From an uncultured archaeon (lineage in GTDB: Archaea; Asgardarchaeota; Thorarchaeia; Thorarchaeales; Thorarchaeaceae), in the NCBI GenBank assembly GCA_964458565.1, contig CAYWJO010000062.1:1-16088 (forward strand): a DNA stretch of 16,088 bases, read 5' to 3'. The position numbers and the translations under genes were made by a program. The notes below the pieces were generated by a model. That model was not told the origin of the DNA. It saw only the letters and a program-made list of their open reading frames with translations, and made no database searches. Shown piece after piece: positions 1 to 14,280 of this stretch. Positions within the stretch are counted from its first letter, which is position 1. Each line of letters begins with the position of its first letter.

Positions 1-3000
1 CAATTCTATCAAACAATTGGTGCGCATCAATCCACTCAACATATTGTTGGAATGGGAAATACACTGACATTAGATCCCTATCTCTCTAAGACTGATGTGA
101 ACATACATCATAGTGATTCCGAACAAGTTGACGCTCTTCTAATGATGTTCTATGACGTATGGACTGTTCAAGAGAAGATTTCTGAACGAGCTGATGAGAG
201 TAAGGACTTTACAAAGGCAAGAGATGAACTCCAGACGATTGCCCTAAAGGTCTATGGAGATAATTTCAATATGTTCTTCAAACGGACTGTCGAACCTGTC
301 AATCCTATCGGAGAAATTGATGAAGTCGCTCTTGCTGAGAGAACTGCTTCTATGTGGGAGGAGCATGCTCCAACAATCGAACAAACATACTATCATATGT
401 CAGAGGAAGGTAAGCTAGAAGAAATCTCAGAAGAGGACCTTCCAGAGGACTATTCTCCACCAATCAAACTAAGCACAGAGGCTGAGCTTTCAGAGAGTGA
501 TATGATTCTTGGGGAGATTCCTCTACTATCTGCACTTAGAGGACCCATTGGTGAAATAATAGATACTCTTCTCAGTGTATTGGGAGGCGGAGGTTCAACC
601 GTTATATCGATACCCAGCGATTTAGTCGAAACTATTCAGAGCCTCTTCAAAGTTATTGAACCAATAATTGGTATAGTAAAAGACTTTGATGCAGAATCAC
701 CGCTCAAGTCTATTGTCAATGCTTTGGCAAATGAGTTCCCATTCATGGCAGAATTCAAGGATTACCTTGATATTATTTTGAAAGCTCTTTTCAATTTCCG
801 TGGAGACCTTGGTAGCATCCTTGAACTTGTAGGTGATATTATTCAAGTTCTATTACCTGATAGCGTTCCTCAGATTCTCAAAGATTTCATCGGACAAATA
901 CTCGATGCTGATAATGGTCTATGGAATGCAATCAGTGAAGTAACATCTGGTGAAAAGGGTGTATTCGATGCGATTTTTGGATTCTTCACTTCAAGTACAC
1001 TCAATTCATTATTGAATAGAACACTAGTTGCAGATCTTGGTATGACCAGTGGTCAGGTAACAACCCTGCTACCACGTGTTATCACCTTCGTAGAATCGAT
1101 TGTTAATTTTATCACTAATGGTAATTTTGGTGACTTTCTACAGAAGGTTGGAACTGACCTTCTTAGTTCTGTCCTCTCAGTGACTGGTCTTGAGGATGTC
1201 GTTGACAAAGTTATGTCTATGATTCAGATGGTCTTGAATGTTGTAGACCTCATTGACAATTTCGATACAACAACTCTGATGGACATCGCAAAAACAATGC
1301 TTGACAAAATCGTAGGTTCGTCAAATATACCCGGTGGGATTGATGAGCTCGCAAAGAATCTGTTTAACGCAGTAAAAACTGTTCAAGAGGGTGGAAGCAC
1401 TGATGTGTCCGGATTTCTCTCAAACCTGAATACCATTCTTGATTCAGGTGTAACGGGAGTTACACAAAATGTCAAGGACATTGTACGAGATGTTATTGCA
1501 CTAATTGCAGGTTTCTTCAACAATGGCTTCGATAAAACACAATTACCCGATATTTTTGAGATTGCAGAAAATATTGCAACAGAGTTCATCGGGACCGGCG
1601 CTGCAGATGTAATTCAAGCATTCAATTCAGCTTTGAAACCGATTATGGGCATTATTGCTCTCATTACTAACAAGGATGCACTCAAGCAGATGATCAGTAA
1701 AACTGTGAACAACTTTGTCTCAGAACTTACTGACGTACCCACCATGGTAAAGAACATACTCAAATTCCTTGATACCGAAGATGTATTTTCAGGAATCCCA
1801 ACTGGTGTTGCTCTCTCTGCTAGTGGGGACCTAGAATCCATTCTTAATACTGTTGGTGAGATAGTTGGCGGTGTCGTCGCCATGGTTCAAGGTATCAAGG
1901 GACAGTCATTCCAGGGTGTCATGCAATCACTTCTCATGAGTGCAGGCTCAATGCTTGGGTCTTTCCCCGGGTTTGATGATGTTCCGATTGATGCAGTACT
2001 CAAACTACTACAGAGCTTCTTCCCTGAAGCATTCGGTCTTAGTAAGGACAATATGCCAAGCAGTACTGAGATAATCAACGAAATCATGGGTCTCGCTGAG
2101 GGTCTGTTAAGTGGAGTCATTGACACTGACACTCTCAAGAGTATTCTGGAGTTCTTCATGGACATCAAAGGCATATTCACTAATGGTGTGAAATGGTTAC
2201 TCGGAAAAGTATTCGATTGGCTGAGCGGCCTTATCAATCCTGTATTAGATGACATCGAGAATACCATTGAGGGTCTCTTCTCGGGATTAGACGACTTACT
2301 AGGCTTCTCAGGGAAGATTCCTATCGGTCTCGGCGATTGGTCTCTCTTCGACCTAGAGTATGCGCTGGGACTCAGAGCGAATTTTGCCATTGACCTCAAC
2401 CCCCTGTTTGACATGATTGTGAGCATGATATTCGATGCTCGTGAGGTCTTCTCCATGGATAACATTGGTGACTTCTTCAAGCAGCTCTTCTCATTCTTCG
2501 AGATATCACCTCAGTTTTATGCAGAGTGTGGTATCGGTGGATTTGACACCGAAAAGAATCCCCTCATGAAGACAATGTTAGAGACTCTAGGTCTCAAGCT
2601 CTCATTTGAAGGCTCAGCAAAATTCGTGCTTAATCTATTCACTTTCAGAAACGGCCAGTTCGACTTTGACAACTTCTTCAGTATCGTCGAATGGTCTCTT
2701 CATATCAAAATTCATATAGGTAAGGTATTCACACTACTCGACTTCCTTACAGCTGGAGTCGGTGGTGGTGCACTCAACGCCGTCGCTTCTTTCCTCGGTC
2801 TGGATATGATCACCGTTGAGGTTTACTTTGAGATTGTTATTGACATCGTAAAGAAGGCGGCTAGTGCGTTAGAACCAGAGGTGTCCTCGTTGACACTTAC
2901 TATCATCTTCGGTGTGTCAGTGCATATACCGATAGAACTCATAATTGTAGCTATCACCATCGACGGCACGCTGGAGATAATTCTCACGTTTTACCAAGAC

Positions 3001-6000
3001 TTTGCATCGCCATCGCCCATGAAGATAACTTTACGGCTGGTGTTTACCATCAAGGTGAAGTTCCGATTCCTCATGATCAGTGAATCGGCTACCTTCACCT
3101 GGGAGCCTGGCGGTCCTTGGGACCTCTCTCCATCAAAGGGGGAGGCAGACTATGATGAAACAGGACAGGGCTTCGATACGGACGGTGACGGATTAGGAGA
3201 CGCGTATGAGGACTCCATGCCCGGTCTTGACAAGAATAAAGCAGATACTGATGACGATGGTGCGAATGACAAACTCGAAGTCCAGACCATGGGTACTGAC
3301 TATGTCAATCCCGACTCTGATGGAGACGGACTACTCGATGGCGAAGAGTGGGAGCTGGGTACATCTCCAATGCGTGAGGATACAGACTGGGACGATGTTG
3401 ACGACTACAAGGAAGTCAAGGTCTATGGTACTGACCCCCTCACACAGGATTCAGATGGTGACGGTCTCACCGACGCGTACGAAATCTACACCAAACTCGA
3501 TATCAGCAATGTGACTCCAACAGTGACCGAGGTTATCATCGGTGGAGAGACCTACAATGATAGGACTGATCCATTGAACCCTGACACAGATGGAGATGAT
3601 CTGATGGACGGTGACGAGGGTCCCATGGGTGCCTACTATGGAGATCCCGCCCTCTACAATGACACTGAGGACGAGGATACCGGATGGTTCTCAGACCCGA
3701 ACCCGCTCATCTTTAATGGTGGATTCACTCACCCGTTAGACGCTGACACTGATGACGACAGCGCTCTCCAACTCTACAACGGTATTGTGGACTCTCAAGC
3801 CTACTTGTACCTCAAAGACATGAATGATGGTGCTGAGGTCTCTGGATTCTGGATTATCCTCTACGATGATGAGGGTGAACCAGAAAACAAGAAGGTGTTT
3901 ACGAATCCTTGCAATCCAGACACAGATGGCGATACAGGTATCACCGACAGAACTCCGCAACCTGGAGCTTGGTTGAACTCCGACGGGTATGAACTTGCTC
4001 AGACTCCACCTACAGATCCAACAGATGGTGACTCCGACGACGATGGCCTTCTGGACGGTCTAGAGGGAGTATTAAACCAATACAGCAACCACACCAACGC
4101 TCTTGACTCTGACACAGATGACGACGGTTTGTTCGACATGCAGGAGATTCTCCTTGGTGCAGATCCAAGAGAGCAAGATACTGATGGAGACATGATCTCT
4201 GACGGAGACGAGTTCTACGTATTCTTCACTAATCCCAATGTCTGGGACTCAGACTTTGATGGACTTGGAGACGGGGAAGAGGTTTACTTCTGGCACACAA
4301 ATCCACTGATTGACGATTCAGATGCGGATCGGTTGCTCGATGGAGATGAGGTGCTGATGTATGGAACGGACCCAATGGATGAGGACGGAGACAATGACGG
4401 TCTTACAGACTTTGAAGAAATCAAAGTCTACTATACAGACGGATTTGATTATGACTCGGATGATGATGGACTGAGTGACGGAGAGGAAATCGAACTTTAT
4501 AATTCCGACCCGCTCTCTTGGGATACAGACCATGACTCTATTATGGAACCCAACGAGAATGGTTCTATGACCTTCCCGCTGAATGACTACTCCGAGGTCA
4601 TGATCTATCACACCAATGTCACTGATGCAGACTCGGACCAGGATGGTCTTCGGGATGGTCTAGAGCTCTATCTAGGTTCTGGACTCATTGAATGGGATAA
4701 TAATTCGCTTCCATGGTTCGTCAATGATACGATTATTGGGGGTAAAACAAGACTCATAATACCAGTCGATCCCATGAACAAAGACACTGATGGTGACCTC
4801 ATACCTGATGGTACTGAGATGGCAATAGTAAACGTCTCAGGTCTCATTTATCCATTTAGAGCTATGACCCTTGAGTTCAGGTACAATACTTCGCCAGTTG
4901 ATGCTGATAGTGACAATGACATATTGACTGATTATCAGGAGGTTCTGGTGTTCAATTCACAACCGGATAACATTGATACGGATAACGATACATTGACTGA
5001 TTGGTGGGAGATTTGGGTCTATAACACGTCAGCATTGTATAATGACACAGATGGAGACGAGCTATTAGACAATGAGGAGACACTTACTGAGATATGGCCG
5101 TATGGCCCGTGGCCGCCTTCCAATTGGAGTATTGGTATGGGAACTGAGGATGGCTTGGCAATGCCGAAGTCAAGTTTCATCATTGCGGAAGACCATCCGA
5201 TTCTGATGTTCGCACCTTCGCAGACTCCATTGTATCCGACGTCAGCTAATGATCCGGATTGTGATGACGATTGGTTGCCGGACGGGGCGGAGGTGAAATT
5301 CTACCATACGAATCCGTTGTCGGATGATACCGATCTGGATGGAATTCCGGATGGAATGGAATTCGATTCGGACTTTGATGGACTGGAAGACGGATTGGAG
5401 TTCAAGCTTCTTTTGTACAGATCTGGAGGAGTTTTCGATCCGGATTCTGATAATGACGGTATATTAGATGGAGCAGAATATTACCTCTACGGTACAGATC
5501 CTGCATCTGCAGATACAGATGGTGATGGATATCCCGATGGTCTTGAGATAGCCATAGGTACAGATCCAACAGTAATTACCACAATTGTGGAGTATGAGTA
5601 TTACATCTCTGTAATGCGTGGTGAGGCGTCTATGGATATACTTCTACCTCTAGCAATCGTGGACAATGCGATGACCGTAGACGTGAATGTCCTGAACTAC
5701 ACACCATTCCAGGAGATGAAATTCAGGTATAACACCACTGATGGTTGGAGTGATAATTTCACTATGACCTATAGCACAGCCACAATGACGTGGATCTACA
5801 GCGATATGCAATGGGAGGTGGGTGGTTACAAGGTACAGGTCTTTGCAAAGGACTTTGAGGATAATGACTACATAGCTCAACGAGAATTCACAGTAGCAGC
5901 AGTACCGACTTATGGAGAACCAATTAGTCCATTAGTATTGATTGCTATCGGTCTTGGTGTTGGCTTTATTCTCTTCCCACTTCTGATATATGGAATGCCG

Positions 6001-14227: not shown

Positions 14228-14238
14228 ACCCCTCTCCC

Positions 14239-14280
14239 AAGCTCCCGTACAATACGGGAGCTTTCTCATCTTTTTTCTTT
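14239..14280 (+). terminator. Hairpin plus pyrimidine/T-tract terminator of the ORF1-ORF2 unit
   Basis: Perfect 11-bp stem AAGCTCCCGTA (14239-14249), loop CAA, TACGGGAGCTT (14253-14263), then TCTCATCTTTTTTCTTT. The stem begins 11 nt after the ORF2 stop. Confidence 0.75.

Follow-up and report, generated by a model that had tools for sequence, protein, structure and literature searches.

A conserved gene pair encoding two giant calcium-repeat surface proteins in Asgard archaea

Among known prokaryotes, Asgard archaea are most closely related to eukaryotes. Here, we describe a pair of adjacent giant genes, ORF1 and ORF2, located on contig CAYWJO010000062.1 (C62) of an uncultured Thorarchaeaceae genome (GenBank assembly GCA_964458565.1; a bin of 3.73 Mb in 93 contigs). 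The whole 16,088-bp contig was analysed and is called the window. There is strong genetic evidence for joint function of ORF1 and ORF2. We consider it probable that the two encoded proteins form a two-subunit surface structure that is made in matched amounts, contains calcium-stiffened parts and has a role in contact. Such a pairing had been proposed in an initial annotation of the window made from the sequence alone.

Organization of the two-gene unit

Both genes lie on the forward strand, and the signals that delimit and connect them are as follows.

1..6162, plus strand: ORF1, open from base 1 to a TAG stop at 6160-6162; 2053 amino acids (aa) in the window, 5' end cut at the contig edge
6151..6157, plus strand: Shine-Dalgarno-like GGAGGTG for ORF2, within the last codons of ORF1 and 8 nucleotides (nt) before the GTG
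6164..14227, plus strand: ORF2, GTG start at 6164; 2687 aa
14239..14280, plus strand: terminator-like hairpin (11 bp, 14239-14263) with a T-rich run, the 3' end of the two-gene unit

ORF1 and ORF2 are separated by a single nucleotide (T, 6163). Because the ribosome-binding site of ORF2 lies within the last codons of ORF1 and its start only 1 nt past the ORF1 stop, ORF2 is most likely translated by ribosomes finishing ORF1, and the two proteins would therefore be made in matched amounts. Terminator-like sites in the interval 14000-14700 number 2 vs 0.4 expected. The missing start of ORF1 was found on a second contig of the same genome (C29), where G000:C29:380-3 (minus strand) encodes a further 126 aa including a signal peptide that ends in ..AVWA/GQ. 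The end of C29 overlaps the start of C62 by five bases (CAATT) and in frame, and the full ORF1 of ~2178 aa is similar in length to its orthologues. Upstream of ORF1, C29 carries a spacer of 245 nt that contains both a hairpin and an AT-rich box. With the ORF1 start and signal peptide on C29, this spacer and hairpin in front and the terminator behind, the unit therefore comprises exactly two genes. A larger conserved operon was also considered and was rejected, as the flanking genes on both sides differ between loci: upstream neighbours are DUF362, a pyridine-nucleotide oxidoreductase or a zinc-ribbon protein elsewhere and a VIT-VWA gene here, and downstream neighbours likewise vary.

Distribution, adjacency and fusion

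The ORF1 head and the N-terminal part of ORF2 were used as queries in searches over 41 and 301 Asgard genomes. Of the 301 genomes, 85 gave a match to the ORF1 head and 81 to ORF2, counts in which related genomes are not independent and many bins are fragmented. By family, ORF1/ORF2 tallies are 41/40 (f1), 10/10 (f5), 10/9 (f14) and 11/11 (f22), and in several large families neither gene was found, with 0/68 for both in family f9. Close relatives of the ORF1 head lie on Thorarchaeota or Promethearchaeota contigs, and an exhaustive search among 1.84 billion representative proteins returned only 72 clusters of the head family. Orthologous pairs, deposited as 'hypothetical protein', are present in Candidatus (Ca.) Heimdallarchaeum aukensis, H. 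endolithica, Ca. Harpocratesius repetitus and a closed 'Heimdallarchaeota' genome. The genome analysed here had no match in a search for SSU rRNA, and these relatives and named orthologues support its taxonomic placement. In metagenome scans, an exact 34-mer spanning the ORF1/ORF2 junction had no match, and a degenerate junction pattern occurred in six contigs, none encoding relatives of either protein.

At all of the ~70 loci with both genes on one contig, the ORF1 and ORF2 matches are neighbours on the same strand, the only separations being splits at contig ends. The gene junction was read at 33 loci, namely 31 orthologous loci, drawn from seven or more Asgard families, and two paralogues of reverse order. 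In 33/33, the downstream start falls between 7 nt before and 21 nt after the upstream stop, and at most of them a GGAGG-like run is found in the last codons of the upstream gene. The two reverse-order loci, where the propeller gene comes first, show an ATGA overlap behind GGAGG.

The two genes have also been fused. In one Thorarchaeota genus, a single reading frame of up to 4901 aa spans both ORF1 and ORF2 in a number of independent assemblies, and a second, distant fusion encodes a 4348-aa protein. The junction runs from the ORF1 anchor through a charged loop of ~40-65 residues into the hydrophobic start of ORF2, which serves as a second membrane span. This gives an out-in-out topology with ORF2 still outside the cell, so that the fusion is topologically sound. 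Fusions in at least two lineages constitute strong genomic evidence for joint function at a dosage of ~1:1.

These results bear directly on the genetic claims of the initial annotation. The two giant genes 1 nt apart, the second ribosome-binding site inside the first gene (GGAGGTG, 6151-6157) and the single terminator (hairpin, 14239-14263) are all borne out, and the paired, translationally coupled unit is upheld by adjacency at ~70 loci, coupling signals at 33 loci and fusions in at least two lineages. Homologues that occur apart from each other had been named there as speaking against the pairing; the homologues turned out to be syntenic and not scattered. Recovery of the upstream genes, which it had put forward as a check, led to the ORF1 start on C29 and to upstream genes that differ by locus, leaving a unit of two genes.

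Protein lengths are 2040-2300 aa for ORF1 and, depending on lineage, 2560-2700 or 2900-3250 aa for ORF2. A correlation between ORF1 and ORF2 lengths over 25 pairs (rho 0.40, p 0.046, non-independent data) was too weak for use. In family f22 (loci L050-L052 and L059-L061), ORF2 measures ~3100-3250 aa and a third frame of >470-550 aa follows directly on the same strand; a three-gene version of the pair may exist in some lineages. Two ORF1 relatives, P0015 (2800 aa) and P0017, have a ~500-residue insertion or rearrangement between the N-terminal domain and the remaining head.

Evolutionary history was analysed with four trees (ORF1 head, ORF1 stalk, ORF2 N-half and ORF2 C-half), for which only FastTree Shimodaira-Hasegawa-like (SH-like) supports were used. 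The main clades agree across all four. The Loki-type pair of Harpocratesius (L044, G214; 44-50% identity) lies inside the Thorarchaeota clade in 4/4 trees. Because of this consistent nesting, the sequence comparisons suggest that the whole pair moved as a unit and was transferred between Asgard classes.

Architecture of ORF1

As predicted from sequence, ORF1 is a type I membrane protein consisting of a signal peptide, a head, a TSP3 stalk, a membrane anchor and a cytoplasmic tail. A signal peptide is present in those orthologues whose start is reliably called, and hydropathy identifies C-terminal anchors in both proteins at nearly all loci. The parts of ORF1 encoded in the window (residue numbers counted within the window) are:

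1..690, plus strand: N-terminal alpha/beta domain (aa 1-230), from the AlphaFold2 model; its first ~126 aa are on C29
688..2283, plus strand: array of ~22 amphipathic helices (aa 230-761), from the AlphaFold2 model; without Pfam family
2296..3102, plus strand: beta region (aa 766-1034) of ten strands of 12-19 residues, from the AlphaFold2 model
3175..5550, plus strand: TSP3-type calcium-repeat stalk (aa 1059-1850), from Pfam and motif count
5551..5931, plus strand: membrane-proximal beta-rich module, called from sequence only; no Pfam match, poorly conserved
5932..5988, plus strand: transmembrane anchor (aa 1978-1996), from hydropathy
5989..6159, plus strand: cytoplasmic K/S/T-rich tail (~55 aa), its last codons containing the ORF2 ribosome-binding site

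The head was modelled with AlphaFold2 (aa 1-1050, 50 homologues) at a mean predicted local distance difference test score (pLDDT) of 76 and a predicted template modelling score (pTM) of 0.55. L, I, V, F and M make up 40% of the helical region, which carries a net charge of -37. The beta region is the best-conserved part of the head, and in every long strand residues alternate between a strongly hydrophobic face (mean hydropathy +2.4 to +3.65) and a polar one (-0.3 to -2.2). Some strands of the N-terminal domain may join the modelled head sheet, as alignments begin near aa 118-139 and span ~118-1046.

Searches with the head gave little. Pfam returned only a sub-threshold Baculo_PEP_C match, a feature search of the ESM Atlas was uninformative (scores <=0.84), and a head profile run against PDB sequences found only designed helical bundles, which were judged compositional and discarded. 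No lipid-binding or pore-forming family was matched by Pfam, the PDB-sequence profile or the other sequence searches. Judged by these comparisons, the ~1200-residue head is a new family. At the structural level, Foldseek found no match below E 0.001 in the PDB, and its weak top-ranking hits were ApoB (9bd1), MTP (6i7s), lipovitellin (1lsh) and vitellogenin (9ens), with E 0.005-0.02 and template modelling scores (TM) of 0.08-0.10. A second-look structural alignment of the beta region placed it with EspP (7ye6_P; Z 9.8, root-mean-square deviation (rmsd) 7.1, 205 residues), PgaA (4y25; Z 9.5, rmsd 4.5, 195 residues) and TamA, where Z values of 9-10 are only slightly above the level of unrelated models. 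In the ESM Atlas, the same region matches TonB-dependent receptor barrels at TM 0.4-0.6, depending on the target. The likeness of the modelled beta region to outer-membrane barrels is one of shape only.

The TSP3_bac model (PF18884) matches four stretches of ORF1 with 38.6 bits (cut-off 25), and 35 DxDxD motifs are spread over aa 1059-1838 at a spacing of ~23 residues. The resulting stalk is the most conserved part of ORF1, with 0.5-0.76 identity to the window across families, and its span lies within 709-816 aa in all but one of the 11 orthologues measured, again across Asgard families. The tail is long and K/S/T-rich only in Thorarchaeota orthologues. ORF1 contains only 3 cysteines.

Architecture of ORF2

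ORF2 begins and ends with a hydrophobic segment, and the region between them is built largely of propellers.

6176..6232, plus strand: N-terminal hydrophobic segment (aa 5-23), a signal peptide or signal-anchor
6446..8272, plus strand: first propeller unit (aa 95-703), from the model; calcium loops invariant, beta domain inserted at ~aa 420-595
8273..14137, plus strand: rest of the ectodomain, with further FG-GAP propellers and a beta region at ~aa 1400-1760 without family assignment
14138..14194, plus strand: C-terminal transmembrane anchor (aa 2659-2677), from hydropathy

A model of aa 1-1200 was obtained from 33 homologues (pLDDT 82, pTM 0.77). It predicts a disordered acidic linker of ~75 aa between the N-terminal helix and ~aa 90. 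Residues 100-350 are the most conserved stretch of either protein; the C-terminal half of ORF2 is the least conserved (~0.2 identity). Behind the anchor follow 10 residues of K/R/E, and orthologue tails differ. Pfam assigns FG-GAP_3 (98 bits) and FG-GAP (59 bits), 12 loops of the DxDxDG type are present, and segment scans show FG-GAP-type matches along the whole of ORF2 except aa 400-720 and 1380-1780. The first of these two stretches (7361-8323) has no Pfam match and holds the inserted beta domain, where an SxDxGxxW-like motif occurs; the second (10301-11503) has no Pfam match either and is beta-rich.

ORF2 had no match among PDB sequences. Foldseek aligned aa 1-1200 with the triple propellers of DDB1 and SF3B3 at E ~5e-15 but with TM of only 0.13-0.22, and in a wide structural search all 7-bladed propellers matched the ORF2 propeller (Z 28-32). 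A specific link to integrins or to any function via the fold was therefore rejected, as any 7-bladed propeller matches equally. Both ectodomains are very acidic (D+E vs K+R of 373/95 and 415/132), and N-glycosylation sequons are slightly more frequent in both than in shuffled sequence.

Regarding the proteins, the initial annotation had described a C-terminal transmembrane anchor in each, and hydrophobic segments are present at aa 1978-1996 of ORF1 and aa 2659-2677 of ORF2. Its many calcium-type Asp loops correspond to the 35 DxDxD motifs of ORF1 and the 12 DxDxDG-type loops of ORF2, making both calcium-repeat surface proteins. The ORF1 head is also unusually amphipathic in the model, with ~22 helices and ten strands that are greasy on one side. 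Domain-wise structure prediction, which it had proposed as a further check, yielded models of ORF1 aa 1-1050 and ORF2 aa 1-1200 that resolve the predicted head parts and propellers.

Further pairs and neighbouring genes in the same genome

Two additional paralogous pairs, each broken across contig ends, bring the genome to three pairs in total. Pair B is obtained by joining C38, which holds the N-half of ORF1' (48% identical), to C59 with its C-half (58%); ORF2' follows ORF1' with a 1-nt gap again and is 41% identical over its full length. Pair C, obtained by joining C40 to C6, has a shorter head, and its partner is a 1958-aa FG-GAP/NHL propeller protein that overlaps by 4 nt. The three contig joins made via giant genes are thus C29 (reverse)-C62, C38-C59 (reverse) and C40 (reverse)-C6, with the C38/C59 and C40/C6 breaks falling within TSP3 repeats. 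Downstream of pair B, a 947-aa protein (L003:5027-7867, minus strand) combines a GldG/IFT52-type GIFT domain (ABC_transp_aux) with PKD. Many other giant TSP3 or propeller surface genes are found in this genome.

The genes that border the ORF1-ORF2 unit are:

G000:C29:626-2599 (L070), minus strand: VIT + VWA membrane-anchored protein, 657 aa, directly upstream of the true start of ORF1
14563-16086, plus strand: ORF3, 3'-open, with a signal peptide and a right-handed beta-helix/NosD (Pfam 115 and 84 bits)

VWA is the domain type of integrin I-domains. Where upstream genes were scanned at other loci, no VIT-VWA gene was found. ORF3, set off from the pair by the terminator and 330 nt of AT-rich spacer, is a separate unit; more than 20 stretches paralogous to it were found in the same genome by tblastn.

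Proposed function and alternative explanations

We propose that ORF1 and ORF2 represent an Asgard-specific two-gene operon with one promoter region upstream of ORF1 on C29 and one terminator after ORF2. Both proteins would be exported and anchored through their C-terminal helix in the single cell membrane, with ectodomains that are very acidic and would bind calcium. ORF1 would carry its new-family head on ~780 residues of TSP3 repeats and ORF2 would form a chain of FG-GAP propellers, the two assembling side by side into a calcium-stiffened structure for contact with other cells or material. The working principle may be like that of integrin alpha/beta or Mycoplasma P110/P140, without homology to either. 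The gene anatomy, its conservation, the coupling signals, the fusions and the domain types are shown directly by the sequences; we infer coupling in vivo, physical association, calcium dependence and a role in adhesion. The high conservation of the first ORF2 propeller is in keeping with a constant partner inside the structure. On the side of ORF1, our guess is that the conserved stalk is the more likely contact with ORF2, because the head is exchangeable and the base of ORF1 is weakly conserved. A complex prediction for the beta tip of ORF1 (aa 700-1050) and the first propeller of ORF2 (aa 90-710), run with alignments, gave a score of 0.00 and a mark of 0.32, with controls not run, an outcome that counts neither way as to binding.

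Several observations weigh against this proposal. No match was found in ~45% of the sampled Thorarchaeota genomes, many being fragmented assemblies, and the pair is therefore not essential. At one locus (L033, G013:C109), the head joins the clade of the window while the stalk and both ORF2 halves join those of G019/G004 (L034/L035), with SH-like support of 1.0 each. The sequences thus suggest that heads are exchanged between cassettes by recombination, and since the history of this head differs from that of its stalk and ORF2, the head is not strictly co-evolving with ORF2. The membrane-proximal part and tail of ORF1 are poorly conserved, which makes a conserved interface there less likely. 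In addition, co-transcription and fusion also occur without a stable complex, for proteins of one process.

Some of these points would suit independent surface-coat proteins that are co-expressed from a shared operon and do not bind each other, perhaps recognizing different ligands: the ORF1 head can be swapped while ORF2 stays in place, the C-terminal half of ORF2 varies strongly, as for an independently evolving adhesin, and the genome holds many further giant TSP3 and propeller surface genes. We regard this explanation as rather unlikely, however, since adjacency is found at all ~70 loci and has been kept through inversion of gene order, duplication and transfer to another class, with two separate fusions in addition, which is much beyond what shared regulation usually preserves. 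Moreover, the most conserved part is the first propeller of ORF2, fitting a fixed internal partner over a variable outside ligand. The near-fixed lengths of ORF1, its stalk span and ORF2 could alternatively point to an envelope spacer or canopy, that is, a non-crystalline substitute or anchor for a surface layer (S-layer) that sets the thickness of the cell surface and does not bind cells. This would agree with Lokiarchaeum ossiferum being without an ordered S-layer and having complex surface proteins that are unidentified (PMC9834061). Yet many Asgard genomes, and even entire families, gave no match to the pair, a single genome may carry as many as three paralogous pairs, and S-layer proteins of another kind are reported to be conserved across many Asgard lineages (bioRxiv 10.1101/2025.02.26.640444), making the spacer the least probable of the explanations weighed here.

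Another explanation, compatible with a two-subunit contact structure, centers on the ORF1 head as the working part of a membrane- or lipid-engaging device, with ORF2 as the recognition or holding subunit. An amphipathic sheet shielded by amphipathic helices would be presented on the calcium stalk, away from the cell, and would either bind lipid or insert itself into a neighbour's membrane, such as the outer membrane of a partner bacterium. The ten predicted strands with one greasy side beside ~22 predicted amphipathic helices agree with this, as do the superposition of the beta region on outer-membrane barrels, its matches to TonB-dependent receptor barrels and the weak top Foldseek hits for the whole head, all of which are large lipid-transfer proteins. 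However, E 0.005-0.02 and TM ~0.09 indicate a similar order of parts and not a shared fold, Z values of 9-10 barely exceed those of unrelated models, a greasy-faced sheet packed on amphipathic helices is also the core of an ordinary two-layer domain, and no lipid-binding or pore-forming family was matched by sequence. We therefore consider such a device quite improbable. A still bolder version, which we offer as speculation with the balance firmly against it, is a cell-to-cell docking machine in which the ORF2 propellers recognize a partner and the barrel-like, helix-shielded ORF1 sheet, presented on its calcium-stiffened stalk, opens on contact, inserting into or taking lipid from the partner's membrane, e.g. 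the outer membrane of a syntrophic bacterium. If true, the lineage that gave rise to eukaryotes would possess a protein device for bringing membranes into intimate contact.

For the two-subunit contact structure that we favor, the broader interest lies in the surface biology of Asgard archaea. 'Complex surface proteins' of unknown identity in Lokiarchaeum ossiferum have been proposed to mediate cell-cell contacts relevant to eukaryogenesis (PMC9834061). The ORF1/ORF2 pair is a concrete and widely conserved two-subunit candidate for such Asgard surface structures, and its two proteins can serve as defined targets in antibody work, tomography, pull-down experiments and assays of lipid binding.

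Comparison with known systems

No paper combining Asgard archaea with FG-GAP was found in the literature searched, and Asgard papers on integrin or thrombospondin do not describe the ORF1/ORF2 pair. The impression conveyed by the initial annotation, that no system of this architecture had been described, thus stands for the literature covered. Its terms 'integrin-alpha-like' and 'TSP3-like' hold only at the level of repeat type and are otherwise too strong: integrin legs and partner domains as well as the thrombospondin C-terminal domain were not detected by Pfam, and the integrin tail motif is absent. As far as these searches go, neither ORF1 nor ORF2 is a thrombospondin or an integrin, as the defining features fail, and the resemblance reflects convergence on widely used repeat types and gives no evidence for an Asgard origin of animal adhesion proteins.

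ORF1 shares TSP3-type DxDxDGxxDxxE calcium repeats with thrombospondin and the cartilage protein COMP. Unlike these, it has ~35 repeat motifs vs ~13, the repeats end in a small unassigned module and a membrane anchor, and a TSP_C lectin-like domain, EGF repeats and an N-terminal coiled coil were not detected (Pfam). Long TSP3 runs in surface proteins linked to adhesion or cohesion are also known from the Myxococcus xanthus gliding-motility lipoprotein CglD (NF033765), from MtsD (NF047639) and from bacterial TSP3_bac (PF18884) proteins. The CglD model matches ORF1 at aa 1410-1609 with 113 bits vs a cut-off of 400 bits, and in the TSP3 region only. Neither CglD nor MtsD shares the ORF1 head, a C-terminal anchor in place of a lipoprotein or an obligatory propeller partner.

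The predicted ORF1 beta region resembles outer-membrane beta-barrels (EspP, PgaA, TamA, TonB-dependent receptors) in having a large antiparallel meander sheet that is curved and greasy on one face, and the modelled order of a helical array followed by amphipathic sheets resembles lipid-transfer proteins (ApoB, MTP, vitellogenin). Unlike both groups, ORF1 has no sequence similarity to them and would place this domain outside the cell on a stalk. Lipid-transfer proteins were not among the top hits of the second-look structural alignment, and Pfam gave no Vitellogenin_N match. Being an archaeon, the host should possess just one membrane and lack an outer membrane of the bacterial type; for the Asgard relative Lokiarchaeum ossiferum, a single membrane has been shown by tomography (PMC9834061).

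Functionally, the pair can be compared with the P110/P140 'Nap' proteins of Mycoplasma genitalium (PMC6203739), described as two large membrane-anchored proteins with propeller ectodomains that form one adhesion complex. A relation in sequence is not expected. The Nap proteins are bacterial and much smaller, and are not known to have a TSP3 stalk or an amphipathic head. Integrins offer the second comparison. Like integrin alpha/beta, ORF1 and ORF2 are two single-pass membrane proteins with C-terminal anchors; ORF2 has an N-terminal FG-GAP propeller (7-blade-type, from aa 95) with DxDxDG calcium loops as in integrin alpha, and ORF1 has a head on a stalk built from repeats as in integrin beta. 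FG-GAP propellers are common throughout prokaryotes and are not integrin-specific (PMC3192720, PMC8023676). Unlike integrin alpha, ORF2 is a chain of several propellers without the Ig-like thigh and calf legs (Integrin_alpha2; no Pfam match in whole-protein or segment scans) and without a GFFKR-type membrane-proximal motif in its tail, and unlike integrin beta, ORF1 has no Pfam match to VWA (beta-I) or EGF. The principle likely shared with integrins, by analogy, is that of a paired, calcium-dependent surface receptor, and the integrin alpha/beta and Mycoplasma P110/P140 pairs would be the closest functional analogies to the ORF1/ORF2 pair.

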